A stretch of DNA of 64,000 nucleotides from Patescibacteria group bacterium (GCA_041671645.1 JBAZBD010000001.1:173365-237364), one strand, 5' to 3'. Numbered from the stretch's first letter, positions 860 through 26,843 are shown. Notes: a model not told the origin generated them from the letters alone. Made by a program: numbers and translations.

Positions 860-950
860 AAATTTCTAATTCCTAAATACTAATTTCTAATCAATGTCTA
901 ATTAATAATTTATAATTAAAAATTGATTAACAATTAAGAAATAAAAATTG
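860..950. repeat. AT-rich ~90 bp intergenic element (ttctaatt family). It is an inverted near-identical copy of 26761-26843.
   Basis: Its reverse complement matches 26761-26843 apart from a 6-nt indel. It sits directly against the dnaE start codon and upstream of the divergent gene at 1006. Confidence 0.75.
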
Positions 951-1005
951 GTAATTTGCGTATTTTCTAGCTAAATGTCGTCAAATGTGTTAAAGTAAGC
1001 AAACA

Positions 1006-2244
1006 ATGCAACACAACAACCAAAAATACGCCTTTGTGCTTGGTCGTGAGCGCGATTTGTGCTTGACGGAACTCTATGCAGTTCTAGTTCGTTTTGGTTT
1101 TTGTTTTACAGTTCCCAGTGTATATGACAATGTCGCAATCATCAATATTGAAAATGCGAACGAAAGTGATGTGGCGAGCTTGATTGAGAGTCTGGGCGGC
1201 ACGATGAAGATTTTCCGCATGATCGTCCCAGTCGATAAGCAAGTCAAGGACAGAATAATTTCTTATATTACGAGCTCAGAGAGAAGCCAGAAGAAATTCA
1301 ACTATACTATTTCTTCTTACTCACGACTTTTCAATTACAAATCGATCTTTGATCTCGGTCTTTCGATCAAAAAGGAGCTGAAAAAGGAGCTATCCTTGCG
1401 ATTCGTTGAAATTAGAGAGGGCAAGGACGCTTCAAGTATTTTGTCCTTGAAAAATCATTTTGTGGATCAAGGTTTTGAGTTTGGCTTGTTCGAAGCAGAT
1501 CTAGGCATTTTAATCGCTCTCACGGATGCGGAAGAGTGGGGCGAGCGTGATTATGATAAGCCATCTGGCGACAAGAGAAGCGGAATGCTTCCGCCAAAAT
1601 TAGCCAGGATGATGATCAATCTTGCGCTAGGATCGAAGAAACAAGAGGGAAAATCTCTCGTGATTGATCCTTTCTGTGGATCGGGCAATATTCTGATCGA
1701 AGCATTGCTTCTTGGCGCTGACGCGATGGGCTCGGACGTGAGCGAAAAAGCGGTTAATGATTCGATGAACAATATCAAATGGCTTGTTGAAAACCCGAAA
1801 TATAGAGACAAAATTACTGCCAAAAATCCGAAGCCGAAGGTGCATATAGACCAAGCCGATGCTTCCAATGTAGATTTTGCAAAACTACTTTCGACTTTCG
1901 ACTTTCGACTTTCAGACTACAACAGCGTAGCTGTGGTGGCCGAGCCGTTTCTGGGCGAGCCCAAGAAATTTAAACCTAGCTTGAACGCAGTCAAGGGCGA
2001 ATATGCAAAGATTCAGGAATTATACATTGATTTCCTCAAGAATATTCGACAATCAGGGCTTCCAATTAATTCGTTGGTTTTGATTTTTCCACTGGTAGAA
2101 ACGCTCGAAGGCAAGCTCTACAGTCTCTTCGACGCAAGTGTTGACGAAATTGAAAAAATTGGCTATAGTGTACTCACTAAACCACTTGTTTATGGTAGAG
2201 AATACCAGGTTGTGAAGCGAGAGATCGTTTTACTACAGTTTTAA
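1006..2244 (+). CDS. SAM-dependent RNA/DNA methyltransferase (UPF0020/THUMP-type, N6-adenine/N2-guanine MTase-like)
   Basis: Motif I DPFCGSGNILIEA and motif IV-like AEPFLGEP are present. The ORF is intact at 412 aa. Confidence 0.6.
   Translation: MQHNNQKYAFVLGRERDLCLTELYAVLVRFGFCFTVPSVYDNVAIINIENANESDVASLIESLGGTMKIFRMIVPVDKQVKDRIISYITSSERSQKKFNYTISSYSRLFNYKSIFDLGLSIKKELKKELSLRFVEIREGKDASSILSLKNHFVDQGFEFGLFEADLGILIALTDAEEWGERDYDKPSGDKRSGMLPPKLARMMINLALGSKKQEGKSLVIDPFCGSGNILIEALLLGADAMGSDVSEKAVNDSMNNIKWLVENPKYRDKITAKNPKPKVHIDQADASNVDFAKLLSTFDFRLSDYNSVAVVAEPFLGEPKKFKPSLNAVKGEYAKIQELYIDFLKNIRQSGLPINSLVLIFPLVETLEGKLYSLFDASVDEIEKIGYSVLTKPLVYGREYQVVKREIVLLQF
1888..1918. repeat. Heptanucleotide tandem repeat (TCGACTT)x3-4 inside the methyltransferase CDS, in frame
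   Basis: The sequence is tcgactttcgactttcgactttcagact and encodes STFDFRLSDY. Confidence 0.8.
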
Positions 2245-2272
2245 TTTGTAAATTATCCCAAAGGGGTACGTC

Positions 2273-2563
2273 ATGGCTCATAAAAAAGCCGCAGGTAGTA
2301 CAAGATTAGGTCGCGATTCCGTCTCCAAACGACTTGGAGTCAAGGTTTTTGGTGATCAATTTGTTACCGCTGGCGGAATCATCATCAGACAGCACGGTAC
2401 CAAATTTTATCCAGGACTCAACGTCGGAATGGGCGATGATTATACGATCTACGCTTCTATCGATGGCTTGGTTAGATTCCAGGAAAAACAGGTTACAGCT
2501 TTCAATGGCAACAAAGACAAGCGAACTTTTGTACATGTAGACGAAATTGTGGAAGGTAAATAA
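2273..2563 (+). CDS. rpmA: 50S ribosomal protein L27
   Basis: [29 protein letters not shown]...GTKFYPG is canonical L27. Confidence 0.95.
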
Positions 2564-3075
2564 TGCTTAAAATTCTCGAAAAATATACCAAGAAAAACAT
2601 TCCTGAAATTCGATCAGGCGACACAGTCAAGGTTCATATCCTGGTCAAAGAAGGCGCCAAAGAGCGCGTTCAGATCTTCGAAGGTCTAGTCATCGCTGTT
2701 CAGCATGGCCAGTCACTCGACGGTACTTTCACTGTTCGCAAAGAGTCCTTCGGTATCGGTGTTGAGAGAACATTTCCTCTTCACAGCCCAAGAGTTGTCA
2801 AAGTTGAGAGAATCAAACAATCCAAAGTCCGCCGAGCCAAACTTTACTTCATGAGAGAATTGACTGGCAAACACGCACGTCTCAAGGATCTCAACCGTGA
2901 TCACAAGGTTTGGGAAGAGAAGGGCGCCGAAGAAGAGCTAGAGAAGATTGCAGCTGAAACTGCTGCTATCGCTGAAGCCGCTGCTGCTGAAAAAGCTGCA
3001 GAGGAAGCCGAAATCGCAGCCAAAGTTGAGGCAGTCGCAGGCGACCGTATCGTAGAGGATAAAAAAGAAGACTAA
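2563..3075 (+). CDS. rplS: 50S ribosomal protein L19 with an Ala/Glu-rich C-terminal extension
   Basis: SGDTVKVHILVKEGAKERVQIFEGLVIAVQ...VRKESFGIGVERTFPLHSP...RRAKLYFMRE matches L19. The start overlaps the rpmA stop. Confidence 0.9.
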   Translation: MLKILEKYTKKNIPEIRSGDTVKVHILVKEGAKERVQIFEGLVIAVQHGQSLDGTFTVRKESFGIGVERTFPLHSPRVVKVERIKQSKVRRAKLYFMRELTGKHARLKDLNRDHKVWEEKGAEEELEKIAAETAAIAEAAAAEKAAEEAEIAAKVEAVAGDRIVEDKKED

Positions 3076-3103
3076 CTACCAAGTTATATACAGTGCTCCA
3101 AAA

Positions 3104-3137
3104 AATACCCAATCGAAAGATAATGGGTATTTTTTTA
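3104..3137 (+). terminator. Rho-independent terminator after rplS
   Basis: The stem aataccca/tgggtatt has loop atcgaaagataa and is followed by a T7 run. Confidence 0.75.
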
Positions 3138-3142
3138 ATTAA

Positions 3143-3337
3143 ATGCTATCATTGAAAAAACAACTTGGAGGAAATATGAACTCAGAAGAAATTGTCAAAG
3201 CAGTAGAAGCGGCTGTTGATACATACAAACAAGATCTTGATCAGGTGGGCAAGAAGCAAAAGCAAGTTCTAAGCGATTTTATTGGTCGTTTGGAGCAAGA
3301 AAAGATGGATAAGATACGGAAGGAAATAGTACTATGA
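3143..3337 (+). CDS. Small hypothetical protein; the likely start is the ATG at 3176 after GGAGG
   Basis: The ORF has the RBS ggaggaaat-ATG at 3176, and its stop overlaps the next gene's ATG (ATGA). Confidence 0.4.
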   Translation: MLSLKKQLGGNMNSEEIVKAVEAAVDTYKQDLDQVGKKQKQVLSDFIGRLEQEKMDKIRKEIVL

Positions 3338-5424
3338 AAGGCGCCGAAAAGGTTGGGGAAAATACAGGAGAAGAAATAAAGGGGCAAGAGGCAACGCCTG
3401 CCGCGGAGCCTAGTAATAGTGAAGTATTGAACAATCGTGCCGAGCAGGTCGTCGGTCTGAAGGGTCTTTCAGAAAATATTAGTAGCAGAAACAGCCAGAC
3501 AGCCGAACAAGTCGGTGGAAATTTGGACGCAGACGCGACTGAAATCGCTGGAGTCAAGGCAGAGATAGATAGAATTGGTGTACAGGAAGGTGGCGTTGCT
3601 CAAGCTAGATTGGCAGAATCACTTGAGAAAATCAGGCAAGAAGCAGGCTCTGACGGCGAGAATCCTGAGGAGATTGCCGCATTGGATAACTTGATCAAAC
3701 GGGTGAAGCCTAGCGCGGAGGAGAATAGTGAAGTTCAGCCTGACGTAGATTGGGACGAAAATTCGGCCAATTTTGATGAAGGCGACAAGCATATCGCGTC
3801 TGAAGGTGAGGAAACTCAGGACGCAGGGCCAGAGCAGAGAGACGACGATGAGAAAACAAAGATCTACGAAGAGCCGAATTTAGATCCTGCCGTCCAGAAG
3901 ATATATGAAGAGATTACAGCTCGTGCGGCCAAATGGACGCAAGAGGCACAGAGCGGCAAGTCTGGCGCGATTGCACAGACCGAATCGCGGAAAGACCCTG
4001 CTCGATACTCGGGCCAGATGAACTTCTTGAGCTCCAGAGGAGTTTGGGAAAGATTTGCCAAAGATTATCCCGAAAAAGCGTTGGCTTACGCTGATAAGAA
4101 TGAGGACATTGCCGAGGGCTTGGCGGCTTCTGCCCCGCGTGCAGAAAAATCCGATGGAGCGCCGAAAATTATTCCCGGCGAAGCAGGGCCCGAAATGCCT
4201 GCAGAAGAAGATGAAACGCCAGGCGAGGAATCAGAATCGGAGACAGACAAAATGATTCAGGAGCTTGGTCTCGAAGATGCTTCGCCTGAGAATCCAGTCA
4301 AAATGCAGTGGGCCAACGAGGATGGCGATGTCGAGGTATCAGTCACTGGGGTCAATGAAGAGCCAGGTGCTGATGGCAGGACGTATGCTAGGGCTTTTGA
4401 CGAGGAAACTGGCGCAGAGTTTGAGGTGCCGCTAGACGAATTGCAGTCGATCGATCTAGCTGTCGGGGAGGAGGACGATGGATCCCCAGACGAAGAGGGC
4501 GAAGCTCAGAAGAAGGAAGCGCCAACCGAGAAAGAGGGCGAGGATGAGCCGACTCAGGCCGAAGCAGACGAGAAGAATAATGCTTATCGTGAGAAGATCT
4601 CTCAAGAGAGACAGCTGCGGATACGTGACCGCCTAGAGAGACGGGGCAAAGAGCAGGCAGAGAGAGACGAAGTGGCAGTACAATCAATTACGATGAGCCT
4701 AGAGAAGGCTAGTACTGCTCTTGCGGAGACGAAAGCCGATACGGGAGAAGAGAGCATATCGAAAATCGGTCCGGCTCTGAAGCTGTTAAATGAAAGTGGT
4801 GCTACCAAGAGAGAGCTTGCTATCCAACTTCTGCCTTCTGTCAGAGCTTTTGCTCGAAACATGGATAAATCATCTTCTGACCCAACTGCAGCGGAAACCA
4901 TTACAGCACAGAAAATACTCGGTAATCGAGAAGCTGGCGACCAGAGGTTGCAAGAAGCATTTGTCAAAATTAATTCATTGAATCAGGAGACAGACAAAGT
5001 CTCTGGCGGCGAATCCATGGCGTATTTGATGAAATATATCGTGAAAAACTCCGAGGGTAAACTTGGCAACCCTGCCCAGAAAGATGACATTGAAGCTCCC
5101 CAGGCACAAAATGATACGGTTGAAGAGGCTGAACCTTTGACTGCGGAGCGACCAATTGCTAATCAGGCAGAAGGAGCTGATTTAGGCGGTGATGAAGTTG
5201 GGGACGAAGGAAATGAACCAGGGTCCAGGAACGCCGACACAGTTGAAGAACCAAGCACGGCCCAAGATGGAGATCAAGAAGCGGCAAATCCATATAGCGA
5301 TCCGGAGGCTCAGCCAGATGTAAATTGGGATGACAATTCGGCCGAATTCGATGAGGCTGATAGGGAAATTGCCCAGTCAGATCAGACCGAGAAAACAGAA
5401 GCAAAAGCAGACAGCGGGGAATAA
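3334..5424 (+). CDS. Very acidic (D/E/A-rich) low-complexity hypothetical protein with an internally duplicated motif
   Basis: The 696-aa ORF carries the motif QPDV(D/N)WD(E/D)NSA(N/E)FDE(G/A)D(K/R)xIA near both the N- and C-termini. I see no signal peptide. Confidence 0.6.
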   Translation: MKGAEKVGENTGEEIKGQEATPAAEPSNSEVLNNRAEQVVGLKGLSENISSRNSQTAEQVGGNLDADATEIAGVKAEIDRIGVQEGGVAQARLAESLEKIRQEAGSDGENPEEIAALDNLIKRVKPSAEENSEVQPDVDWDENSANFDEGDKHIASEGEETQDAGPEQRDDDEKTKIYEEPNLDPAVQKIYEEITARAAKWTQEAQSGKSGAIAQTESRKDPARYSGQMNFLSSRGVWERFAKDYPEKALAYADKNEDIAEGLAASAPRAEKSDGAPKIIPGEAGPEMPAEEDETPGEESESETDKMIQELGLEDASPENPVKMQWANEDGDVEVSVTGVNEEPGADGRTYARAFDEETGAEFEVPLDELQSIDLAVGEEDDGSPDEEGEAQKKEAPTEKEGEDEPTQAEADEKNNAYREKISQERQLRIRDRLERRGKEQAERDEVAVQSITMSLEKASTALAETKADTGEESISKIGPALKLLNESGATKRELAIQLLPSVRAFARNMDKSSSDPTAAETITAQKILGNREAGDQRLQEAFVKINSLNQETDKVSGGESMAYLMKYIVKNSEGKLGNPAQKDDIEAPQAQNDTVEEAEPLTAERPIANQAEGADLGGDEVGDEGNEPGSRNADTVEEPSTAQDGDQEAANPYSDPEAQPDVNWDDNSAEFDEADREIAQSDQTEKTEAKADSGE

Positions 5425-5440
5425 GTGCTAGGATTATGAT

Positions 5441-7807
5441 ATGAAATTGTTTAAAAACAATATAAAAAGAGTTGGCTCATTCAAGCTAAAAGATTTTGAG
5501 TTGGTCAAAAACCATTACCTTGCTAGAGCATCAGAACTTAATCGACTCATAAATGGATCTAACAAAACCGAATCTCTGGCCGAGAATTCAAAGCGAGCTT
5601 ATTATCTGCATTGTTTTATCGACGATATGAGGGATTTGGGCTATCCGGAGATCGCGGATGGTCTTGAGGAGGCCTTAGCCAAAAGATATCACGATCCGAA
5701 AATATTGTTGAATATCGCTGAAGCAGGACTGTCCAGGATTCTTTCCAGTTTCGAAGGCAAAATCAGATTGGGGGAGAACGAATACCATATTCGTAATGGC
5801 AAAGCATATTACCAAAGTGTTTTTGACAAATGGTACGAGCTAAAAGGTGTTCAAGTCTTTCTCCTTACTCCTGATCTGGGCGAAGAAGTCGTCCCAATTG
5901 ATGCCGAGGGCGAAAAGGGCATCAATGAATATCAAACTTTTCTTCGAGCATGGCGAGAATCCGGTGGCAGAGACAATTTTGATTTTAGCTCGACAGACGG
6001 TGATACGACTCCAGAGAACTACTTCGAATCTTCTGTAAATGAAATTAGTAAAATTATTGAGACTCCAATAAGTTCAGAGGCGATCTTGGCAAAAATCGGT
6101 AGCGAGCAAAAATTTGAAAGAATCTTCAAAGTCGCTGCTAGGTTGATCAAATTTGTCAAAGAAATTCGAGATAGCGGCGTCTCGCCAGTCTACCTTTTGC
6201 GAGACGGCCTAATGTTCGCCGAGGCACAGAAAGCGCTTGATTTCGCTTCAGGGCAGGACACGCTGAGCGGACAATTGATGATCAACCGCAAGTTGCTGAG
6301 TAAGGAACCGGATGACCATTATTATTGGGCATTGGCGTCCGATGCGCTTTACGTCGCTCTGCCGAAGAACGGCCGTGATTTTGATCTTTTTTACAAGAAT
6401 TATTGCCAGGAGATGGCTAGACTCAAGATAAAAGAGCCCGGGTTTAAAGAACTGCTTAGTCGACTTGGTTTATACGTTTCCTCCCAGTTATCACATCTCA
6501 AGGGGTCGAAGAAAATATTGGTTGTAGACACTGGTCTCCAGGGGTCTATTAACATGCTCACCAAATACGTTATTGATTTCCACACTGATCTGGATGTGCC
6601 AGTAGACGTGGAAATGTTCGTGGTTGGAGATTGGCTGAAGCGAATCTATCAGAAAAGATACGCCAGCGATTATTACCCGATCCTGAAAGACATTGAGATA
6701 TTCAATCGAAGTGACCATTTGTACAATTACAGATCTGGAAGTTTCGAATCGGGGAAAGTAGAAGTAACCATGGGTAGCGAAGCTGAACAATTGATGGCTC
6801 ATGTCGAATTGATAATCATCACGATGTTGTGCAAATTGATGGATGAGCAGAAATCGGCGCCCAAAGTATCTCCAGCTGAGGCGGCTTCAGGCGGTATGGC
6901 AAACCAGTATTCTCTCGATGGATTTAAGCTGGCAAAAACTTTGGCTGACCCCTCAAAACCCCTAACGTCTCACACTGTAGAATTGTGGGAAAACCATCAG
7001 GGCGAACGTCTCGTGGTTAAGACCGTTTCGGATGGCCTTGAGCACAGTTTATCAGCAGATATTATCGGTCAACGTTGCTTCACTCTGCTGGGTTTGCCGT
7101 CGCCCCGGACGTCCCTGATAGAGCACGACGACAAATATCGTTTGGTGATGGAGTTTCTCGACGGGTACAAGACACCAGATGATCCCCTAGCTCTGCCCCT
7201 GGGCCAAGAAAATAATCGAGTGATCCAATCTGGCATTCTAGCTGATATCTGGCTCCATCATTATGATCGGCAGCCTTACAATTTCATGTTCAAGGGCGAT
7301 GAGCCTGTATTTATTGATTTCGGAGGGTGTTTGACCTCTTCGCCAAGCGGCAAAATTACTGGTTTTCCGGCCGAAATTACAGATCAGGAAATATTGAATT
7401 GCATCAAAGCTTTTCAGGGCGATTATCCGGTCAATCAAGCGTATGGAGAAGTCATTTCTTTTAACCCAAGCTCGAAAAAGATTGTTGTCAAAGATGCTGA
7501 ACTTCTGGCTCGACTGGCTGATCAACTCTCCAAGGTTTCCGATGAACAAATCGAGGCGATTGTCAGTCAGAACATTTTGTTTTTCCAAAAACATAATCCA
7601 GACAGAATCCAACATATCCTGGACAATTTGGAGGAAAACTTGAAGATACCAATTGAGAAACTTCACTATGCTCATTACCATAATAATTTCCTCGAGGCAC
7701 GCGATACTTTTGCCCGCGTTAGAGATGAATTTGATTCTGATGAATCAAACTATATTCAGTTTGCGCTGAAGCAACGACGTGATATGTTGGTGAAAAGATT
7801 TAAATAA
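5441..7807 (+). CDS. Hypothetical protein with a C-terminal atypical protein-kinase-like (PI3/4K-like) catalytic core
   Basis: The C-terminal region has RLVVKTV (Lys), a hinge at VMEFLDG, the catalytic loop WLHHYDRQPYNFMF (HxDxxxxN / DRxxxN) and FIDFGG (DFG). The N-terminal ~500 aa is unrecognised. Confidence 0.6.
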   Translation: MKLFKNNIKRVGSFKLKDFELVKNHYLARASELNRLINGSNKTESLAENSKRAYYLHCFIDDMRDLGYPEIADGLEEALAKRYHDPKILLNIAEAGLSRILSSFEGKIRLGENEYHIRNGKAYYQSVFDKWYELKGVQVFLLTPDLGEEVVPIDAEGEKGINEYQTFLRAWRESGGRDNFDFSSTDGDTTPENYFESSVNEISKIIETPISSEAILAKIGSEQKFERIFKVAARLIKFVKEIRDSGVSPVYLLRDGLMFAEAQKALDFASGQDTLSGQLMINRKLLSKEPDDHYYWALASDALYVALPKNGRDFDLFYKNYCQEMARLKIKEPGFKELLSRLGLYVSSQLSHLKGSKKILVVDTGLQGSINMLTKYVIDFHTDLDVPVDVEMFVVGDWLKRIYQKRYASDYYPILKDIEIFNRSDHLYNYRSGSFESGKVEVTMGSEAEQLMAHVELIIITMLCKLMDEQKSAPKVSPAEAASGGMANQYSLDGFKLAKTLADPSKPLTSHTVELWENHQGERLVVKTVSDGLEHSLSADIIGQRCFTLLGLPSPRTSLIEHDDKYRLVMEFLDGYKTPDDPLALPLGQENNRVIQSGILADIWLHHYDRQPYNFMFKGDEPVFIDFGGCLTSSPSGKITGFPAEITDQEILNCIKAFQGDYPVNQAYGEVISFNPSSKKIVVKDAELLARLADQLSKVSDEQIEAIVSQNILFFQKHNPDRIQHILDNLEENLKIPIEKLHYAHYHNNFLEARDTFARVRDEFDSDESNYIQFALKQRRDMLVKRFK

Positions 7808-7818
7808 CAGAGGCATTT

Positions 7819-9183: not shown

Positions 9184-9202
9184 CATAAAATAAGGTTAGA
9201 TA

Positions 9203-9238
9203 AAAAATGCTTGCACAACATTCAGCAGGCATTTTTTG
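9203..9238 (+). terminator. Rho-independent terminator
   Basis: The hairpin is aatgcttgc...gcaggcatt and is followed by TTTTTT. Confidence 0.7.
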
Positions 9239-9301
9239 ATGGACAAAGATATCAAATTATGGTAAAGATATTCCAAACGCTATATGCGGGAGGGTGAGAA
9301 A

Positions 9302-18228: not shown

Positions 18229-18266
18229 TGTGTACATGTTTGGGCTCGCGGATACTTGATCTCTCG

Positions 18267-18298
18267 ACAGTTGTCTATAGAAAATTACAGACAATTGT
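18267..18298 (+). promoter_or_regulatory. Operator-like inverted repeat between the promoter and the RBS
   Basis: ACAGTTGTCT, a 12-nt spacer, AGACAATTGT: 10-bp arms with 1 mismatch. Confidence 0.4.
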
Positions 18299-18312
18299 TC
18301 GGGAGGAGTAGT

Positions 18313-18891
18313 ATGAATCGAAAAAACGACAGCGTAATTTGCTTGTCCGCCATCGCTTTAATTGGGATTGCGGCCACGGCAATTCTGACGGTTGAGAACA
18401 GGAGATTGGCTTCGCTTCTTGAGGAAGCGGCGACCGATCATCTGACCGGTATACCCACCAGAAGACACCTGATGAGAAGTCTCAAAAGGTTGGAAATGGG
18501 CGGCGTTCGTTCTCTGCCGCTGGCAGTTCTGGTCATCGATGCCAACGGTCTCAAGGAGACCAACGATTTGCATGGTCACAAAGCGGGAGATAGACTCCTG
18601 CAGGTGATAGCAGAGATAATTATTGAAAATGTCCGCCCCAATGACATTTTCGGCCGATTGGGCGGCGATGAATTTATCATCGTTCTGCCAAATACTGATT
18701 TGGATGGTGCTGAGCTTGTAGCCAAGAGGTTGCAAACAGCTTGCGCGTCTTCCTATTTCAAGTATCCCGTATCGGTTTCGATTGGGATTGCGGTTAGGGA
18801 AGATTTATCCAAACCGATTGATAAAATCATTCATGAGGCCGACCAAGAAATGTACAAGGCGAAAGCCGCGTACAAGAAGGCTCATGTTTGA
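18313..18891 (+). CDS. GGDEF-domain diguanylate cyclase with an N-terminal TM helix; the ORF could extend to 18256
   Basis: RLGGDEFIIVL gives the GGDEF motif, DANGLKETNDLHGHKAGD is typical, and the TM segment is ICLSAIALIGIAATAIL. Confidence 0.8.
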   Translation: MNRKNDSVICLSAIALIGIAATAILTVENRRLASLLEEAATDHLTGIPTRRHLMRSLKRLEMGGVRSLPLAVLVIDANGLKETNDLHGHKAGDRLLQVIAEIIIENVRPNDIFGRLGGDEFIIVLPNTDLDGAELVAKRLQTACASSYFKYPVSVSIGIAVREDLSKPIDKIIHEADQEMYKAKAAYKKAHV

Positions 18892-18912
18892 ACTAAATTT
18901 ACTGGTGGCACC

Positions 18913-18955
18913 TCGATATATATCGGAGTGCCACATTTTATTTGTAGAAACATTT
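18913..18955 (+). terminator. Rho-independent terminator
   Basis: The stem GTGGCAC...GTGCCAC has an inner CTCGATATATATCGGAG and is followed by attttattt. Confidence 0.7.
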
Positions 18956-18976
18956 TTTTCTTATTATACTTGACTC

Positions 18977-20257
18977 ATGTGTCTCACAATTCCAGGAAAA
19001 ATTGAATCGATAGATGACGTGGGTATCGCCACCGTATTATCATCCCGCGAAAAGGCTCAGATTGACCTCTCGCTTGTTTCTGACGTTTACCCCGGTGATT
19101 GGATACTTTATGCATCAAACAGGGCTGTCAAGGCAATCTCGGAGGAAGATGCCAAGGAGATCATAGCCTTGCTCGAAGACAATTATAGCCAGGTCGACGT
19201 TAGCCGTTTGCCCCTGCAGTTCAAGAAAATTATATACAAAGTTCGCTCGGGCAATTCTGATTTGACCAAGGACGAGATAGTTTATCTTTTGAACCTCAAA
19301 GGCAAGAATAACCTCGAAACTTTGTATGCCGAAGCCAATACTCTACGCAAAGACAGGATCAAGGATTTCGTTTGCATCCATGGCATTATTGAGTTCTCAA
19401 ATTATTGCAAAAATCTCTGCCTCTATTGTGGCATCCGAAAAGGTAATAAGGTCGAGCGATATCGGATGAAACGAGAAGAGATTGTTAAAGCTGCGAGGCA
19501 GGCAGTTGACGAGGAGGGCTACAAGCTCCTGGTCCTGCAAAGTGGGGAAGACGATGAGTATTCTGATGACGATTTGATCAAAATTGTAGCGGAAATCAAG
19601 AAAGAACTGCGAGTCTTTGTCTTTCTTTCTGTCGGCGAGAGAAGTATTAATTTTTACAAAAAAGCTTATGAAGCTGGGGCGTCTGGGGCTCTGATTCGAT
19701 TCGAAACCTCGGACCCCGAATTTTATTCAGAATTACGCCCGGGCCACAAATTGGACGACCGATTAAAATTAATCAAACAGATGACGGAGCTCGGCTACTA
19801 CATGGCGACAGGCAATATCGTCGGCTTGCCAGGGCAAAGTCTTGAAAGTCTGGCAGACGATTTGCTTTTGATCAAAAAGTTAAATGCGCCAATGATCAGC
19901 TCTGGCCCGTGGCTCCCAGCCAAAGGAACGCCGCTGGTGCAAGTCGAAAGTCGAAAGTCGAAAGTCGAAAGTTTGGAAATTATGCTGAAGTATATTGCAG
20001 TTGCTAGGTTCTTGATGCCGGAGGCGAAGATTCCGGTCACGACAGCGCTTGAGACGCTTGACCCAGAGAACGGACGACACAAGGGACTTTTGGCGGGTGC
20101 CAGCGCTCTAATGTTTAGCCTGACCCCAGAGAAATATGCGGGCGATTATTCTATCTATGACAACAAATATCGCGAGCGTGAGAAGGTCTGGCAGAAATAT
20201 GGCTTGTTTAAGGGTGAAGAGAGCTACGAAATGTTGGCTGATAGGCTTAAGGTTTGA
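18977..20257 (+). CDS. Fusion protein: N-terminal HypC/HupF-like domain plus a HydE/PylB/BioB-family radical SAM domain
   Basis: The N-terminus MCLTIPGKIESIDD...IDLSLV...GDWILY matches the HypC signature MC(L/I)x(I/V)PG. After that comes IIEFSNYCKNLCLYCGIRKGNKVERYRM (CxxxCxxC) with HydE-like motifs VLQSGED and GNIVGLPGQS. Confidence 0.75.
   Translation: MCLTIPGKIESIDDVGIATVLSSREKAQIDLSLVSDVYPGDWILYASNRAVKAISEEDAKEIIALLEDNYSQVDVSRLPLQFKKIIYKVRSGNSDLTKDEIVYLLNLKGKNNLETLYAEANTLRKDRIKDFVCIHGIIEFSNYCKNLCLYCGIRKGNKVERYRMKREEIVKAARQAVDEEGYKLLVLQSGEDDEYSDDDLIKIVAEIKKELRVFVFLSVGERSINFYKKAYEAGASGALIRFETSDPEFYSELRPGHKLDDRLKLIKQMTELGYYMATGNIVGLPGQSLESLADDLLLIKKLNAPMISSGPWLPAKGTPLVQVESRKSKVESLEIMLKYIAVARFLMPEAKIPVTTALETLDPENGRHKGLLAGASALMFSLTPEKYAGDYSIYDNKYREREKVWQKYGLFKGEESYEMLADRLKV
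19943..19972. repeat. Heptanucleotide tandem repeat (GTCGAAA)x4, in frame in the radical SAM CDS
   Basis: gtcgaaagtcgaaagtcgaaagtcgaaagt encodes VESRKSKVES. It is the reverse-complement unit of the repeat at 1888-1918. Confidence 0.8.
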
Positions 20258-20304
20258 TTTTATTATTGCCAGATGGGACTTTTTGTGCTAATATTTCTCT
20301 GTTT

Positions 20305-20379
20305 GGCGTCATCGTATAACGGTTAGTACGCCGCCCTCTCACGGCGGTAATTGGGGTTCGATTCCCCATGACGCTACCA
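20305..20379 (+). tRNA. tRNA-Glu (anticodon CUC)
   Basis: A cloverleaf folds by eye: acceptor GGCGTCA/TGACGCT with a G-U at 1:72, anticodon stem CCGCC/GGCGG with loop ctCTCac, T-arm TGGGG-TTCGATT-CCCCA, and an encoded CCA. Confidence 0.85.
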
Positions 20380-20383
20380 AAAA

Positions 20384-20410
20384 ACCATCAGCACAGCTGG
20401 TGTTTTTTTG
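20384..20410 (+). terminator. Terminator after tRNA-Glu
   Basis: The stem CATCAGC-aca-GCTGGTG is followed by TTTTTTT. Confidence 0.6.
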
Positions 20411-20473
20411 TTTTTGCAATCGAATATATGCAGAGCCACGATTATTTTGTCGTCCCACTTCTTCTGAAACAGT

Positions 20474-21733
20474 CTAGGGCTGATGCATATTTTTGGCTCG
20501 ATTTACGACATTCGGCCAGTTCCAGATAGAATCAATATAAAGCATGTTCACAATTTCGGATTTAAGGTAATGTTTTTCTTCCAAAACGCCAATGCACTTG
20601 ATCCATTTGTCTAGCTGAATATTATACAAATTTTCAATATCCTGCATAAGTGTTTGATCGTCTGGGCTGCTCAAAGTGCGGCCTTCTACATTGTCATCAT
20701 TTATTCTAGAAACAGTATCACTGAAAGAATAAATAACGTCCCTGATTCCTTTTTTATCACTTTGAATGTCCATATAATCGTATAACTTTGAGTGCATTGT
20801 CTCTTTGATTTCAACCGAATTAGACATACCTTTAACGTAAGCTAATAGTTCATCCTTAATTCTGTTATCGATTCCGGACGAAATTAAATATTGATTCAAG
20901 ATCGATTTTTCTACCAGAAAAATCTGACTGTCCGCATCGAGATTTTCTATGACTTTATCGTTTTGATATAGCTTGTCTGTATTATAGACAGTAAACAGTT
21001 GATGAAATTTATGTTGTTCCTCATGATCTTCTGTCGGCTTGTAGTCATATCTTGACACCGTCACCACACCTCTAAGTCCGTATGACTCTTTATACGAGAA
21101 CCCTCCAGACATTGAGGCGTCTTCTTCGTCGCCATATAATTTATTAAAATCATTACTGTTGCTACAAATAATGTTGAAATTTGCAGGAAGAGTTTTGACC
21201 TTGATTTCTCCTTCTGGCATATGGCCAGATAATGCCTCAAACAATTCTTGATCGGTATATTTTTGTCTCTGCTCCTGAACCAATCGATGTTTATCGAGAT
21301 AGTTTCTGATACCTTGTTCAAAACTACTTTTTTGATAGTAATTTAGCCCAATCGCTTTACCTTGAGTATCAACAATTTGAGATAGTTCCTGAACCGATAT
21401 ATCAGGATTACTCTTTATGGTATCGAAAAGTGTGTTAACAATTTTGTTGATACCTTCCCTTTGAGCTCTGAGTTTGGCCTTATAATCTAAAAATTTATCA
21501 AAAAAAGCGACTTTAGCTTTTTCGTCAGAATAATCTACCGCATCTTTTTCTTCCTTCAACTTGAAGAGCTCCTTTCCAGGATCAAACTGGCCGTCAAAAA
21601 CAATAGCGTCAGCTGCCTGATTTAGGCCATTTTCAAGATCCTCTTTTGACTCTTCGCTAGCGGCTCGCCAATCTTCGGCGTTTTCCATGCCCCAGGCGTT
21701 AAATTCATCTTGTTGCATACCTCTCTCGTTCAT
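20474..21733 (-). CDS. Hypothetical protein (419 aa)
   Basis: This is an isolated, intact minus-strand ORF. I recognise no motif. Confidence 0.6.
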   Translation of the reverse strand: MNERGMQQDEFNAWGMENAEDWRAASEESKEDLENGLNQAADAIVFDGQFDPGKELFKLKEEKDAVDYSDEKAKVAFFDKFLDYKAKLRAQREGINKIVNTLFDTIKSNPDISVQELSQIVDTQGKAIGLNYYQKSSFEQGIRNYLDKHRLVQEQRQKYTDQELFEALSGHMPEGEIKVKTLPANFNIICSNSNDFNKLYGDEEDASMSGGFSYKESYGLRGVVTVSRYDYKPTEDHEEQHKFHQLFTVYNTDKLYQNDKVIENLDADSQIFLVEKSILNQYLISSGIDNRIKDELLAYVKGMSNSVEIKETMHSKLYDYMDIQSDKKGIRDVIYSFSDTVSRINDDNVEGRTLSSPDDQTLMQDIENLYNIQLDKWIKCIGVLEEKHYLKSEIVNMLYIDSIWNWPNVVNRAKNMHQP

Positions 21734-21884
21734 ATAGACCTCAAATATTTAGTTTCTATACTAAAAATACAGCGGTTGGAGCCGAAACTCAAGCGTCGCT
21801 TCAGCTTCTCTCTGTCGATGACGCCTCGAATTTTACAACCGAATATGTTTAGAGTTATAATTAATTTAAGTTAACGGAGGGCGA

Positions 21885-23300
21885 GTGAAAAAACAGGGCT
21901 CCGCGATTTTAATTGCAGTTTTATTGGTTACGGCGATCGGTTCGCTGGCTTTTTCGTTTGGCAGAATATTGCTTGCTGATATTACCGGTGCCAACATTTA
22001 TGAAAATGGGGCCGGTGCGTATTATTCGGCCGAGTCCGGCGTAGAGGAGGGAATGTTGCGTTATCGTTTTGCTCCCACGGCCACTGTGCCGGCAAGCAAC
22101 TGGAATCTTGGCGCCTCGGATTGGGTATATCGCTCAGATTTGGCTGCAAAGACGGCCGAGACTGGCCTAGATGTTGGGATCGATAGAAATACAGCGATCA
22201 CGGCAAACGCCAATCAAACTTATGATCTAAGACTTGGCTACATAGGCAGTGGCGCTACTCAGCCGTTTTGGGGCGAAGATTTAGATGCGAATGGGCTTGA
22301 TATTAGTGACTTAGCCAGCGACAAATATGGAGCGACCATTCCATCACTGAGAGTGCCGAAGGACGAGGTGCTGAAGATATCGCTTCCAGCGAAGTTCAAT
22401 CTTTCTGGCCCAAACGGAGCTTTGAATTTGCTTGTGGTGTTTGAAAATCCGACAGATCCAGCAGGAACAGTTGATAAGGATAAAGCTGTAATTGAAGTCA
22501 AGGCTATCGCAAAACGGCCGACTAATCTAAACAGAACTTATGAATACAAAAAAATGGTTGCTTTCTCCAGTCCTGATGCTATCTCAAATATTGGAGGGAG
22601 CGATGATGATTACATTCCTCGGAATACTCCCTGGGACAGTGTAAACGGAAAAAAGGGCTTGGCAATAAATAATCTTTTGGGGGGTCTTGGGGTTGCTTAT
22701 GACCCGCCAGTATCTGGAACCGGCGGCACCGAGATCGAGTTATCATTCCGTCCACTTTTTAATAATATTAGAATCGGCCTCTCCACCCAGGGTTGCCAAA
22801 ACTATATTGGGACTCCGCTTGCTGCTTGCGACGGTACAACCGCGACTGTCATGCCCGGACCGGTCGCTCGGATTATCTCTTCTGGCCATTATGCGGACGT
22901 GATCAAGACGCTCGAGGTCAACGTTGACCGCCAGTCCGGCACGTTATATGATCTCTATGATAACGTAGTTTACTCGGCGAACAATGGGACTACTTATAGT
23001 TTAACTTTTCAAAATAGCGGTGATTGTGTCGCCAAGATTACGATTGGTGCAAAGGATTACCTGATTCCTGCAAGCACCGGGTCAGGACCAGGCAGCGTGG
23101 CAGTCAGTTATGGCAAAAACTCTAATTTGAATATATCGTTGACAGGAGTCAACACGCCTACAAGTGTATGTCTCGCCGATTCGACAATCCATCCGATGCA
23201 AGATATTACAGATGGCTGGTCGAGCCCTACTCTGGTCGGCGGCACCTACTTGCTTGATAGAAATAGAACCATTAGCGCAAGTACTTACATTCCAAAATAA
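21885..23300 (+). CDS. Hypothetical secreted/pilus-associated protein with a pilin-like N-terminal hydrophobic segment (GTG start)
   Basis: It begins MKKQGSAILIAVLLVTAIGSLAF, which resembles a class III (prepilin-like) signal but has no Glu at +5. The RBS is aacggaggg. A PilB-like ATPase and a receiver gene are adjacent. Confidence 0.5.
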   Translation: MKKQGSAILIAVLLVTAIGSLAFSFGRILLADITGANIYENGAGAYYSAESGVEEGMLRYRFAPTATVPASNWNLGASDWVYRSDLAAKTAETGLDVGIDRNTAITANANQTYDLRLGYIGSGATQPFWGEDLDANGLDISDLASDKYGATIPSLRVPKDEVLKISLPAKFNLSGPNGALNLLVVFENPTDPAGTVDKDKAVIEVKAIAKRPTNLNRTYEYKKMVAFSSPDAISNIGGSDDDYIPRNTPWDSVNGKKGLAINNLLGGLGVAYDPPVSGTGGTEIELSFRPLFNNIRIGLSTQGCQNYIGTPLAACDGTTATVMPGPVARIISSGHYADVIKTLEVNVDRQSGTLYDLYDNVVYSANNGTTYSLTFQNSGDCVAKITIGAKDYLIPASTGSGPGSVAVSYGKNSNLNISLTGVNTPTSVCLADSTIHPMQDITDGWSSPTLVGGTYLLDRNRTISASTYIPK

Positions 23301-23343
23301 ATTCAATGATCGCATAAAATTTTAATAATAAAGAGAGGAAAAT

Positions 23344-23739
23344 ATGGCAGAGTTAACAAAAGTTTTATTGGCCGATGATGACGCAATCTTGCACGAAATG
23401 TACGCTGAGAGGCTTCGGGCTGAGGGTTTCAACATTATTTCCGCCTACGACGGCGAGGAAGCGCTCGAGAAATTCAATGCCGAGAAGCCGGCTCTTCTCG
23501 TTCTCGATATTATGATGCCAAAAATGAATGGCATTGATGTCATGAAGAAAATCAGGGAGGGAGACATCAATCCAAACACCCCAATCATCCTTCTGACCGC
23601 GCTGGTCCAAGAGATCAACAAAATCAAAAAGATGATGAAAGAGGGCGATCAATATCTCATCAAAAGCGAGATCGTCCCAGCTAATCTGATCGAAGCAATC
23701 AAATCTACTCTCAAGAAAAGTTCAGCTAGCGCCGCCTAA
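23344..23739 (+). CDS. Single-domain CheY-like response regulator receiver
   Basis: KVLLADDDAILHEMY...LLVLDIMMPKMNG...IILLTAL. The conserved Asp residues and the T/K positions are present. Confidence 0.8.
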   Translation: MAELTKVLLADDDAILHEMYAERLRAEGFNIISAYDGEEALEKFNAEKPALLVLDIMMPKMNGIDVMKKIREGDINPNTPIILLTALVQEINKIKKMMKEGDQYLIKSEIVPANLIEAIKSTLKKSSASAA

Positions 23740-25789
23740 GAGTCTTGTATAGTTCTTCCAGAGTTGTCTGGCCTCGAAGTACCTTGTCGAGGCCATCTTC
23801 TCGTATTGTCGAGAGCTCATTGTATCTGAGTACCTCGTCATAATCGTCTGGCTCACCAGAGAGAGTTTGTTTGACGATATTGTGATTGATTTTAACCACT
23901 TCATGTAGGGGGATCTGACCTTTAAATCCGGATTCTGCACAAGCGCTGCAACCGATAGGTAGCCAGATTTTCTGAGCAGTTTTACCTAGGGTTAATTCTT
24001 TTTCAATATAATTTTTGAGCTTGTCTTCTAATGGACGATCCATCTCTTTTTTGCATTTATCACAAATACGGCGGGAGAGTTTCTCAAAAATAACGAGTTT
24101 TAGCAATTCGGAAATCTTGGTCTCGCTGATGCCCCAATCGTAGAGTCTCTTGATCGTCTCTGCGACGGAGGAGCCGGCCATCGAGATGATCAGGAAATGG
24201 CCGCTGGCTGCCAACTCAAAGGCTTTCTGGACCGTTTCGCGGCTATCAGCCCCGGTGATACCGATAACATCAGGATCGAGTTTCTCGACCTGGCTCATGG
24301 CAGTTTCTCTGTCGGCTGGATTCGAAATGCTGGTTTGATTGATTCCCGGAAGGCGGAATTTGACCGGATTCTCAAGTGTCACAATGTTGATTCCTTCCGA
24401 ATAGACCTGATCGATCAGGGCGTAGAAAAGTGTGCTCTTGCCAGACTCGCTAGGTCCAGTGATCATAATAATACCGCTTCTATCGATGCATGCCTCTGTG
24501 ACCAGTTTGAAATTTTTGTCTGAAAATTCTAATTCCCCCAGGTTCTTGAGGGCGGTCAATTTGTTGGTCAGTTTCATTGTAATCTTGAGGCCATCGAGGA
24601 CAGGAAAAGTAGCGAGACTATATTCGTAGGTCTCGTTTTCGATGTTTATCTTGAGTTTGCCAGTTTGTGGCTTGGTCTGGTCATCGTCGAGGGAGGAAAT
24701 CAGAGAAAAAGCACGAACCAGGAGATTGCCCATCGCTTTGGGCAGGGAGGTCCGCTTCTGCAGAAGGCCGTCGATCCTGAATCGCATTGTAATCTCCTCT
24801 TTTGACGGATCAAAATGAATGTCGGTGGCATTGTCTCTGACCGATTTTTTGATCAGATTCAGTACTGTCCTGACGACTGGGGCAACCTTGCCTTCGTTGC
24901 TAAGAGAGCTAATAAATTCAGGAGTTGGCTCGACGGCAACGATCAGGTTGCCCTCTCTCAGCCTGGCATATTGAGCCAAGACATGTGCCATACCGGTTTC
25001 GTCGGCCAATTTGATCTCGACTGTGCGCCCAGTAACCTTCTCAAGCAAATGGATCACTTCGTCGTCACCAGCGTCCAACATCGCCACGACCAAGACATTG
25101 TCTTCGTCTTCAATAGCTACGACGCGGTGGTTTTTGGCAAATGACTCAGGGATGATAGCCAGGATGGAGGAAGGAATTGTGAAGTGGCTGAGGTCGACGA
25201 AAGGAATTTTGTTTTTCTTGTCCTTGTGGGAAATGGGTGCGACAAAATCAGCGTCATCTTTCTCCACTGGCTCAATTGTTTTGATCTTGATAACTTCGGC
25301 TTTCTCTCTTGGCGCTTCCTCGACTTTGACCTCTACTTCGGGCGCTTCAACCTTCTCGCCAATTATCTTGATCGGGATATCGACTTCTTCATCTTCGTTG
25401 GTCTTGATCTTTTCTGGGGGGATATCGATCTCTTCTCCCTTGGATTCAGATTTGTCGCCATGCATTTTCTTGAACGAGCCGTATGAAGTGCAATTTTCGA
25501 GATTCAAGCCTCTATTGACCGCTTCTTTGATGTTATCCGCTGGCATCCATTTGACCACGTCGGTAGGAAGCATAATCATCTTTTTGGCTGCGCCAAGCTT
25601 GGGGTGGAGGATAGTTTTGGAGGGGTAATGGACAGTGTAGAAACTTCCGAAATTGGAATAGATGACCTTCTCGCCTTTTTCCAATGTCTCAGAAACGGTG
25701 TCAGCAAAAGCAATCGCTAATTTCAGCGCCTTCTTGATGTTGAGGTTTGTTTTTTTGGCGATCTCTCTCGCCAAATCTTCCCGTGTCAT
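23726..25789 (-). CDS. PilB/GspE-family type IV pilus / T2SS ATPase with an N-terminal HU/IHF-like (DNABII) domain; the ORF could extend to 25879
   Basis: The Walker A is ITGPSESGKSTLFYAL. There is a GspE_N-like region (IPSSILAIIPESFAKNHRVVAI...LVVAM) and a C-terminal CxxC...CxxC. The N-terminal ~90 aa (MTREDLAREIAKKTNLNIKKALKLAIAFADTVSETLEKGEKVIYSNFGSFYTVHY...) fits the HU fold pattern. A TATAAT box and the RBS aaggatggg precede the ATG at 25789. Confidence 0.85.
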   Translation of the reverse strand: MTREDLAREIAKKTNLNIKKALKLAIAFADTVSETLEKGEKVIYSNFGSFYTVHYPSKTILHPKLGAAKKMIMLPTDVVKWMPADNIKEAVNRGLNLENCTSYGSFKKMHGDKSESKGEEIDIPPEKIKTNEDEEVDIPIKIIGEKVEAPEVEVKVEEAPREKAEVIKIKTIEPVEKDDADFVAPISHKDKKNKIPFVDLSHFTIPSSILAIIPESFAKNHRVVAIEDEDNVLVVAMLDAGDDEVIHLLEKVTGRTVEIKLADETGMAHVLAQYARLREGNLIVAVEPTPEFISSLSNEGKVAPVVRTVLNLIKKSVRDNATDIHFDPSKEEITMRFRIDGLLQKRTSLPKAMGNLLVRAFSLISSLDDDQTKPQTGKLKINIENETYEYSLATFPVLDGLKITMKLTNKLTALKNLGELEFSDKNFKLVTEACIDRSGIIMITGPSESGKSTLFYALIDQVYSEGINIVTLENPVKFRLPGINQTSISNPADRETAMSQVEKLDPDVIGITGADSRETVQKAFELAASGHFLIISMAGSSVAETIKRLYDWGISETKISELLKLVIFEKLSRRICDKCKKEMDRPLEDKLKNYIEKELTLGKTAQKIWLPIGCSACAESGFKGQIPLHEVVKINHNIVKQTLSGEPDDYDEVLRYNELSTIREDGLDKVLRGQTTLEELYKTLRRR

Positions 25790-25950
25790 GTCTGCCCATC
25801 CTTTGAAAACATTATATCTTTTTCTGCCAGAAAAAGGCAAATAGATAGGGAAAAAAGGGGGAATTTGAGCGAGCGTCAAGCTTGATTACATTGCCTCAGA
25901 TTGACGTTGGCTCGCAAAAGCTGTACTTATTATTGCAGGGGGTTCCAGCT

Positions 25951-26535
25951 ATGCTCGAACAGATCTTAAGGTTTTCGACCATCACTACGATGGTGGCAGC
26001 TGGGATTGTCCAGCTTTGCTTTCTCTACTTTTATCATCGAGATAGCGTCCAAAGCGCTATAACTCTCAGGATAAATTTACGTGGTGCTCTTTGCGCCTCT
26101 CTCCTTCTGGTTACTGGATGGATTGTCTGGCCAGAAAATGTGCTTATAGATAAATCTGTGCTATGGCTTGGCTGTTTGACGATTATCGCCGGCATGAGTC
26201 TACGCCTTTGGGCGCAATTTACACTCAAGTCAATGTGGTCAGTAGGGACGAGAATACTGTCTGGCCATGTATTGACCGACCAAGGGCCATATCGATTTCT
26301 CCGTCATCCGATGTATGTCGGATACGGACTAGTAGGGATTGGGACGATCTTGCTCACGCAGAATATTTTGATACTCTGTGGTTGGTCTTTCTTCTTCATT
26401 TTGCTCTTCCAGAGAGCGCTTGAGGAAAGTACAGCCCTTTACCAGAAATTCGGCGAAAGTTTTCTGGGTTGGACTGGAGGGCGAATGATGCTCGGACCGC
26501 CAATCTGGCTGACTCTGTGGAAAATTAATCAGTAG
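25951..26535 (+). CDS. Isoprenylcysteine carboxyl methyltransferase (ICMT/PEMT) family membrane methyltransferase; the ORF could extend to 25882
   Basis: GPYRFLRHPMYVGY is the family signature. The protein has multiple TM helices. Confidence 0.75.
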   Translation: MLEQILRFSTITTMVAAGIVQLCFLYFYHRDSVQSAITLRINLRGALCASLLLVTGWIVWPENVLIDKSVLWLGCLTIIAGMSLRLWAQFTLKSMWSVGTRILSGHVLTDQGPYRFLRHPMYVGYGLVGIGTILLTQNILILCGWSFFFILLFQRALEESTALYQKFGESFLGWTGGRMMLGPPIWLTLWKINQ

Positions 26536-26552
26536 CTTACTTAAAATTTATC

Positions 26553-26590
26553 AGGACGGCGCTCAAAAAGAGCCCGTCTATTTTATTTCT
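26553..26590 (+). terminator. Rho-independent terminator
   Basis: The stem gacggcgctc...gagcccgtc is followed by tattttattt. Confidence 0.65.
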
Positions 26591-26637
26591 TAAAACAAAA
26601 AGTGTTTACAACTCTGTGGACTGCTTGGGGACAATTA

Positions 26638-26667
26638 AGTTGAAAGTTGAAAGTTAGAAGTTGAAAG
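26638..26667. repeat. Heptanucleotide tandem repeat (AGTTGAA)x4, intergenic
   Basis: The sequence is agttgaaagttgaaagttagaagttgaaag. Confidence 0.75.
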
Positions 26668-26760
26668 ACAAGGGTGGGAGGGAATAATTATGCAATAGTT
26701 CACGATGCAGTGGCATAAGGCTTATAATAAGACAGCTGACAAACTAGAAGTTCATTTTTT

Positions 26761-26843
26761 AATTTTTATTTCTTAATTGTTAATCAATTTTTAATTATAA
26801 ATTATTAATTAGACATTGATTAGAAATTAGTATTTAGAAATTC
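26761..26843. repeat. AT-rich ~85 bp element; inverted copy of 860-950, immediately upstream of dnaX
   Basis: It is near-identical to the reverse complement of 860-950, with one 6-nt indel. Confidence 0.75.

Follow-up and report, generated by a model that had tools for sequence, protein, structure and literature searches.

The closest described counterparts of the elements reported here are the intervening sequences (IVSs) of bacterial 23S rRNA genes. The Coxiella IVS is described as a selfish element in helix 45 of the 23S rRNA: it has terminal inverted repeats, an S23p open reading frame (ORF) in the loop and strain-variable tandem heptamers beside this ORF, and it is excised by RNase III; IVSs with an S23p (PF05635) gene occur in Leptospira, Coxiella and Brucella (PMC4990558). 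For the candidate phyla radiation (CPR), a survey of rRNA genes reports numerous insertions of <200 bp in 23S genes, without an ORF and not introns, which it considers "probably" IVSs, as well as PF05635 ORFs in rRNA insertions (PMC11270868). Here we describe a family of AT-rich hairpins built from degenerate heptamers, which fills the spacers before dnaE, dnaX, dnaB and an iscS-like gene in a 64-kb stretch of a Patescibacteria group bacterium (GCA_041671645.1, JBAZBD010000001.1:173365-237364; hereafter the window). The window represents about 7% of an 868-kb genome, and all statements on copies within this genome cover the window only.

The elements resemble IVSs, which are regarded as selfish and horizontally spread, in having complementary ends that form a long stem, both in the window copies and in family copies elsewhere. 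Variable-number tandem heptamers lie next to the ORF, a PF05635 ORF occupies the loop of the family copies L007, L020 and L038, and the copy L033 is inserted at the tip of a 23S helix (L numbers denote loci in other genomes, P numbers homologous proteins found by protein search). Unlike IVSs, however, the window copies are ORF-less, measure about 90-120 nt and lie in mRNA leaders and intercistronic spacers; their arms consist wholly of AATTNNN heptamers and the sequence family spans many CPR groups. The L033 copy also resembles the short CPR insertions in being <200 nt, ORF-less and not an intron, although the sequence, structure and occurrence outside rRNA of those insertions are not described in that study (PMC11270868).

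Miniature inverted-repeat transposable elements (MITEs) and palindromic repeats such as Correia/NEMIS, ERIC and RUP, together with REP doublets forming hairpins (REPINs; PMC3116915), share further properties with the family: they are short, non-coding, multi-copy and extragenic, have inverted conserved ends that form a hairpin, occur in either orientation and include near-identical copies within a genome as well as composite or nested forms. Features of this type are seen here in five full copies in 64 kb and 52 stretches elsewhere. On the other hand, the copies showed no target-site duplication, PF05635 is the sole protein linked to them, with no transposase or REP-associated tyrosine transposase (RAYT) partner identified, and the interior is heptamer-periodic and conserved across phylum-level groups. 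The TAACTGA repeats of marine Beggiatoaceae (PMC4679880) and the short tandemly repeated repetitive sequences (STRRs) of cyanobacteria likewise form 7-nt runs in intergenic DNA, often before starts without a Shine-Dalgarno (SD) sequence; their arrays also occur in ORFs and their patchy phylogenetic distribution suggests transfer. Those are direct repeats of one unit with a preferred forward orientation, whereas here degenerate units make up a palindrome with a specific core and without orientation preference.

TIGR (Tas-associated) arrays were considered and rejected. They have ~36-nt units with alternating edge and loop repeats, 9-nt spacers, box C/D motifs and an adjacent Nop-domain gene (PMC12045711); the period here is 7 nt and the layout is different. 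No Rfam family matches the element at gathering score, either in the window (two tRNAs only, no rRNA) or in 16 related loci, where only rRNA, tRNA, 5S and one group I intron were found and none on the element itself. The literature searched contains no description of this hairpin family, nor of PF05635 genes tied to heptamer palindromes.

The best-matching copies in the window, A and B, belong to dnaE and dnaX. A repeat search finds inverted arms of 82 nt at 868-949 and 26761-26842, 99% complementary and separated by 25,811 nt, and local alignment gives 82 ungapped positions with a single mismatch. Similarity is lost exactly at both element ends, and the flanks of the two copies are unrelated. 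Copy A (861-950), a heptamer-built imperfect palindrome, touches the start codon of dnaE (CAT 857-859, minus strand), of which the N-terminal part with the PHP domain (Pfam) ends at 859; its better-folding strand is the minus strand, which is sense for dnaE (-21.2 against -14.5 kcal/mol for the other strand). Copy B (26756-26842), inverted with respect to A, folds better on the plus strand, again sense (-24.2 against -17.4 kcal/mol), in the presumed 5' untranslated region of dnaX (26857-28413, plus strand; Pfam). Between copy B and the dnaX ATG at 26857 lies a spacer of 14 nt, CCCCGAAGGGGTCT (26843-26856, plus strand), which contains a small CCCC-GAA-GGGG hairpin and a possible SD-like GAAGGGG. 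A promoter-like site (TTCACG-18-TATAAT, 26699-26728, plus strand) is found upstream of copy B and hence places the copy inside the dnaX leader.

Judged from this comparison, the dnaE and dnaX elements appear to be a recent intragenomic duplication of a discrete unit. An earlier, sequence-only reading of the stretch had already recognised the near-identical inverted pair, but the 6-nt indel it described is really one extra terminal heptamer in copy A (7 nt, AATTCCT/AATTTCT, 861-874). That both copies abut their start codons is correct for dnaE and not for dnaX, given the 14-nt spacer. An independent Logan assembly from the source sample is interrupted within copy B, 49 nt upstream of the dnaX ATG, which would be expected of a repeat.

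Copy C (28412-28494) is diverged, with 68% ungapped identity to copy A, and fills the spacer between dnaX and dnaB: it overlaps the dnaX stop codon (28411-28413) and ends 7 nt short of the dnaB ATG at 28502 (dnaB 28502-29914, plus strand; Pfam). Copy D (55939-56034; 84% ungapped identity to copy A) occupies the whole spacer before the iscS-like gene, a class-V aminotransferase/cysteine desulfurase (56035-57264, ATG at 56035; Pfam), and includes the last codons of the small ORF on the other side (55742-55954). Both fold better on the minus strand, which is antisense to the genes (-20.6 against -10.3 kcal/mol for C; -27.4, z -6.0, against -9.0 kcal/mol for D). The common gene-relative orientation proposed for the elements therefore holds for the A/B pair only. 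Copy E (45461-45580, plus strand), likewise a full hairpin, belongs to a G-containing subtype (arm ATTGGGA...TAGAAATTAG; -32 kcal/mol, z -4.4) and lies in a poorly coding region. At tatD (TatD_DNase match in Pfam) only a three-unit fragment of 21 nt is present, TAATTAT TAATTAG AAATTGG (52987-53007, plus strand), just 5' of the probable GTG start. Diverged relatives had been proposed at dnaB, iscS, 45.5 kb and tatD; the first three are full copies, the one at 45.5 kb being of a different subtype, and the last is reduced to this fragment.

All elements are imperfect palindromes of ~90-150 nt with arms of degenerate AATTNNN heptamers around a TAATCAAT/ATTGATTA core. Their common plan is 5'-(AATTTYT)3-4 TAATCAAT..YTAATT - variable centre - AATTAG..ATTGATTAG (AAATTAGN)3-4, and the five window copies align with 20 copies elsewhere (25 sequences, oriented by the better-folding strand). 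In most copies the complementary arm lies 45-110 nt downstream of the core. Conservation extends beyond the pattern used for searching, with three AATTTCT units before the core and a sharp outer boundary 21 nt upstream. Tandem Repeats Finder reports period 7 for all window elements at only 67-71% matches, so that the units are degenerate. With one mismatch allowed, AATT repeated every 7 nt is matched 15 times in the window and 0 times in 100 shuffles, so chance does not account for the pattern. At a strict threshold, 7 is the sole tandem period in the window (4 arrays; 0 for the other periods within 4-12), and likewise in 364 kb of related loci. At L010, seven AATTTYT units follow one another.

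On the better strand the window copies reach -20.6 to -32 kcal/mol with z values of -3.5 to -6.0 against shuffled sequence, and family copies elsewhere, detected as palindromes of ~100-150 nt, reach -45 to -68 kcal/mol. The other strand folds worse because G·U mismatches on one strand become A·C on the other, and this asymmetry of individual elements is significant (chi-square p = 0.0012). RNAalifold does not predict a consensus structure from the 25-sequence alignment. When the hairpin of one member is imposed, 81.0% of the cells pair against 80.5% for partner shuffles, with a score that is no better. This absence of compensatory change indicates that the palindrome is inherited from the consensus rather than maintained locus by locus. 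As a consequence of its palindromic nature, the gene-proximal arm of the element reads (AAUUAGR)n in the sense direction at either end.

Small GC-rich hairpins, like the one next to copy B (26843-26853), occur at the left end of the element in L025, L031 and L044 and inside the left arm in L030 and L049. Their sequences, at or in the elements, include CCCC-GAA-GGGG, CCAGTGC-TTCG/GAAG-GCACTGG and CCTGCCCGCA...GCAGGCGGG, and they give the impression of a further layer of insertions, themselves tiny palindromes. L030 and L049 are two sites of one metagenome-assembled genome (MAG) and share an identical nested GC-rich hairpin at the same internal position, which points to whole composite elements being copied.

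A scan of the GTDB representative genomes with the 23-nt core TAATTTCTAATCAATNNCTAATT, common to three window copies, yields 52 stretches. Nearly all come from MAGs labelled CPR, with about 18 group names, among them Roizman-, Parcu-, Morani-, Portnoy-, Sacchari-, Azam-, Nealson-, Shapiro-, Peregrini-, Falkow-, Taylor-, Levy-, Woese-, Berkel- and Niyogibacteria (MAG labels are used as given); eight of the matching MAGs bear the label Saccharibacteria. By chance at most a handful would be expected collection-wide, according to our own composition-based estimate rather than a tool. The window's own genome is not among the 52 stretches. Matches often lie at contig ends, as expected of multi-copy repeats, and outside the search pattern the similarity between groups is up to 80-86%, equal to that of copies within one genome. 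The hairpin family is shared across many CPR groups and is not lineage-specific. Of the earlier suggestion of a lineage-specific, dispersed AT-rich repeat, only the dispersed character is supported. The taxonomy of individual hits needs care: L003, L019 and L035, from related samples but labelled Minisyncoccia, Nanoarchaeia and Kapaibacterium, carry the same sequence around the element, which indicates cross-contamination during binning. A metagenome scan with a 24-nt piece of the A/B loop returned only 4 unrelated AT-rich contigs and did not recover the contig of the window.

The element also occurs among stable RNA genes. L033 has a 189-nt insertion with the element at the tip of a small 23S rRNA hairpin in domain I, and a longer 23S rRNA insertion, of 454 nt in domain V, contains it at L044. 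It is found ~70 nt upstream of the 23S 5' end at L031, within an rRNA operon at L025 and between two tRNA genes at L043. In all five loci the better-folding strand is the transcribed strand, and nowhere else in the data set do the two strands differ as much as in three of these loci (23-30 kcal/mol). The window copies are outside rRNA, in mRNA leaders and spacers.

The family is furthermore associated with PF05635, annotated as "23S rRNA intervening sequence protein" (IVP). At L007, L020 and L038 the two arms are separated by a PF05635 ORF of ~115 aa in place of a short loop. When PF05635 genes are chosen by protein homology alone (L065, L073, L080 and L082), they too are flanked by inverted AT-rich heptamer arrays: the arrays are clear for the first three, including a perfect 29-nt pair with AATCAATT/AATTGATT at L073, and weaker for L082. 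A further gene, at L026, is flanked by (AAAATCA)n/(TGATTTT)n. For all eight of these IVP genes, the number of loci on which the association rests, flank complementarity exceeds the 95th percentile of 454 control ORFs. PF05635 is the only ORF found between matching ends. The CPR PF05635 proteins (P0244-P0363) are 70-91% identical across groups, against 44-69% for DnaX, an identity that would fit horizontal movement. Most of them come from very short contigs, as is typical when genes are mobile or repeated. In the window itself, tblastn with two IVP proteins gives no match, and its copies are ORF-less.

Comparison with relatives shows that the element is not a standing part of the dnaX and dnaE loci. 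The DnaX relatives (54-68% identity) keep the order T2SSE(-)/dnaX(+)/dnaB(+). The promoter-like TTCACG and TATAAT are kept whole in the closest relative, L054, and L055-L057 have only TATAAT at the corresponding position. The element is missing upstream of dnaX in L054, L055 and L057, and the dnaX leader of L056 has a simple (TTAATTC)4.5 array only. Neither is there an element between dnaX and dnaB in L055-L057: the spacer measures 4 nt in L057 and 14 nt in L056, and L055 has a GC-rich sequence of another kind there. The spacer of L054 consists of ~130 nt of different AT-rich, heptamer-like sequence. Upstream of dnaE the element is absent from L063 and L064 (52% and 54% identity to the N-terminal 286 aa), which have ordinary promoter/SD-type upstream regions. 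The closest DnaE relative, P0130, starts at a contig end and was left out of the upstream comparison. As a separate observation, the region of L056 where the window has copy B (3800-4000) contains three kinds of arrays: (TTTTCCA)4, (GTAAGNA)-like and (TTAATTC)4.5.

In other genomes the starts of 45 genes adjoin the element, and these are diverse housekeeping genes: parB, mur ligases, tgt, topA, a secretion ATPase, mraW, ligA, an ATP synthase subunit, tRNA synthetases, nadE, dnaA, fusA, rpsG, frr, RNase J and dnaJ are among them. One further dnaE, that of L008 (Portnoybacteria), has the element before it. Where both neighbours of an element are co-directional, 10 elements fold better on the sense strand and 10 on the antisense strand, so the better-folding strand does not follow the mRNA strand. 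In such spacers the element reaches the upstream stop and the downstream start alike. Since the spacers filled are very short, abutment of a start codon is what any surviving insertion would show.

Taken together, the window elements are probably ORF-less, copy-and-paste hairpin elements of an IVS- and MITE-like kind. Such an element would spread by copy-and-paste or by conversion between copies, within and probably between genomes, and would persist only where its self-contained transcript hairpin does no harm. In a compact genome with tiny spacers, a surviving element fills the gap and so comes to abut stop and start codons. The copies at dnaE and dnaX probably form part of transcribed leaders, in the better-folding orientation (for dnaX from the promoter-like site), and such transcripts would form long AU-rich imperfect stems that, by analogy with 23S IVSs, may be substrates for RNase III. 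Any effect on dnaE and dnaX expression would then be a side effect of the shared insertion and not a designed regulon. The window copies might relate to the IVP-carrying versions as MITEs do to insertion sequences.

PF05635 proteins are four-helix bundles of the same family as Avd, the accessory protein of diversity-generating retroelements. One could go further and regard PF05635 proteins and heptamer palindromes as one mobile system pervading the CPR, in which ORF-carriers are autonomous and ORF-less hairpins are miniatures colonising rRNA helices, tRNA spacers, mRNA leaders and, as single arms of ~31 nt, coding sequences; the protein would spread or tame the elements through a single-stranded nucleic-acid intermediate, with no canonical transposase. 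This extension is tentative and, as a whole, somewhat unlikely.

Several observations speak against a mobile element. There is no vector evident: IMG/VR viral contigs contain 0 matches to the 23-nt core, and blastn of two copies against plasmid and phage records remained unmatched, though AT-rich matches may be masked by BLAST's low-complexity filter. Copies A and B show no target-site duplication, and their flanks share no direct repeat beyond AT-rich ends; with such ends a 2-nt TA duplication is compatible with the flanks. Among the top 25 of the 60 Pfam families of the window there is no transposase, and we know of no mobility function for PF05635, which is not a known transposase either. 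Neither the window nor the loci drew attention to a RAYT, though no search aimed at RAYT was made. Some matching MAGs are labelled non-CPR (Gammaproteobacteria, Bdellovibrionales), and the similarity across phyla could reflect functional constraint instead of horizontal transfer. Moreover, the four main window copies all adjoin start codons, three of them at replication genes, which a neutral model explains only through compactness and chance. Finally, copy number and IVP presence can be read in 64 of 868 kb only.

One alternative is a cis-acting role in the mRNA leader, where the heptamer arrays would act in translation initiation or mRNA stability: as an AU-rich, SD-independent landing site for the ribosome or S1, or as an array for a CsrA- or Csp-type protein, with dnaE and dnaX under shared post-transcriptional control. 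At dnaE, dnaX, dnaB and the iscS-like gene, 0-14 nt separate the copy from the start codon, always with (AAUUAGR)n in sense nearest the gene, and copy B follows a promoter-like site. The genes behind A, C and D lack a normally spaced SD (for dnaE there is only AGGA, 11 nt before the ATG), while a clear GGAGG precedes many other genes of the window. There is a precedent in Beggiatoaceae, for whose TAACTGA heptamers such a role was proposed (MacGregor 2015, PMC4679880). Nonetheless, the same leaders of relatives do without the element, the orientation relative to genes is 10 to 10, covariation is lacking, stop codons are abutted as closely as starts with the whole spacer filled, and translation is irrelevant to the rRNA and tRNA copies. 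As a general explanation we find the leader role unlikely, even if, by analogy, a translational or mRNA-stability role is possible for individual copies. Slippage of the replication machinery in situ would account for changes in unit number. The elements would then be heptanucleotide simple sequence repeats (SSRs) rather than mobile copies, possibly contingency loci in which unit number tunes expression, as in cyanobacterial STRRs or the Haemophilus hmw promoter repeats. The dominance of period 7 among tandem repeats in the window and related loci agrees with it, as do the difference of exactly one unit between A and B, the seven-unit run of L010 and the (TTAATTC)4.5 of L056; a passage in PMC4679880, citing Mrazek 2007, names heptamers as the commonest long SSR class in prokaryotes. 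However, slippage cannot produce the same unit series, core and palindromic layout at unrelated sites in many phyla, nor an 82-nt near-identical inverted pair 25.8 kb apart, and the outer boundary at a fixed distance from the core does not fit either. We therefore consider it improbable.

The sequence-only reading had favoured a shared promoter or regulatory module for replisome genes, that is, a promoter, UP element, operator or nucleoid-protein array acting at the DNA level on dnaE, dnaX and dnaB. Three of the five full window copies indeed adjoin replication genes, the L008 dnaE and the dnaA, ligA, topA and parB among the 45 adjoining genes extend this list, and the 146-nt spacer between dnaE and the trm11-like gene holds no promoter-like site of its own. 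But the element is missing upstream of the relatives' dnaX and dnaE, an absence that the earlier reading itself had named as refuting; the genes adjoining it elsewhere are overwhelmingly not replication genes; and the dnaB copy, like that of the iscS-like gene, is inverted relative to A and B. The dnaX promoter-like site lies outside the element, and within the copies the promoter scan finds a single 9-of-12 match (copy B, minus strand) and nothing in A or D. The module was thereby not upheld, and it is highly improbable. A last alternative takes the A/B pair as a recombination substrate for a programmed 25.8-kb inversion that swaps the upstream regions of dnaE and dnaX. Inverted near-identity over 82 bp is long enough for homologous recombination, so the inversion, also raised by the earlier reading, is physically possible, but there is no sign that it happened. 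GC skew is positive inside and outside 0.9-26.8 kb except in the 2-kb bins at 20, 44, 52 and 58 kb, so that the segment looks like its surroundings apart from the 20-22 kb bin, which holds a minus-strand gene. Gene order at the dnaX junction is as in relatives, an invertase is not among the top 25 of the 60 Pfam families of the window, and the multi-copy family shows no such arrangement elsewhere. Of all the explanations this is the least credible.

CPR genomes are tiny and tightly packed and are usually described as repeat-poor. If the reading as IVS- and MITE-like elements is correct, these genomes would possess a new structural feature in the form of one hairpin family common to many CPR groups, filling the spacers before essential genes and occurring in rRNA and tRNA operons as well. 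It would also tell what at least some of the short unclassified 23S rRNA insertions of CPR bacteria are, extend the long-known but unexplained IVS/S23p elements from rRNA genes to the whole genome, and offer a testable role for the large, function-less PF05635 family. From a practical point of view, such repeats break short-read assemblies and can be taken for regulatory motifs, as in the earlier reading of this stretch.

Heptamer arrays of ~20-33 nt are also present inside ORFs of the window, where they leave the reading frames unbroken and can add loops of 9-15 residues to conserved enzymes. Two lie in the iscS-like gene (56315-56334 and 56577-56607); the others are at 1887-1918, 27936-27966, 38183-38212, 42217-42247, 51779-51852 and 60876-60908. 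In the IscS-like protein the two arrays fall where a solved cysteine desulfurase has 15 and 9 residues fewer, a coincidence which shows that the arrays are real in-frame insertions. In the dnaX array the unit that would give an in-frame TGA is changed; this array falls in a hypervariable linker of the DnaX alignment, where the size of the insertion cannot be read.

Certain arrays of ~31 nt, namely (ACTTTCG)n, (AAGTTGA)n and (GGAATWA)n, recur far apart in both orientations, in genic and intergenic DNA (1887-1918/19941-19972; 26637-26667/27936-27966/56577-56607; 38183-38212/60876-60908). This recurrence suggests very small dispersed repeats, not independent slippage.

Some further features of the window may be mentioned. 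The DnaX, DnaB, IscS-like and Trm11-like proteins are each a singleton at 90% identity in exact look-ups. In other genomes, the relatives of dnaE are called either as two consecutive ORFs (about 362-370 aa and 493-808 aa; L062 37-2640 and L064 2501-6048) or as a stand-alone 286-aa PHP protein (L063 2501-3361), for which a split gene, a frameshift or recoding may be responsible. A motif CTGTGGA(C/T)..CTGGGGA(C/T)AA at ~26606-26634, 5' of the dnaX promoter-like site, is kept in all four relatives L054-L057 and presumably resembles DnaA boxes (TGTGGATAA); GC skew indicates no origin at the dnaX region. The surroundings of copy E, 44728-47590, form a stretch of ~2.9 kb 5' of an Nramp transporter gene in which hardly any coding sequence is convincing. 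Besides copy E it has a strong promoter-like site (~44880) and two direct repeats, one of 60 nt (45766/46729, 95%) and one of 38 nt (46523/47183), but no Rfam match. Lastly, a perfect 13-nt tandem repeat (CCCCTTCTAACTT x 2.8) is found at 61002-61037, directly 5' of a gene starting at 61069.

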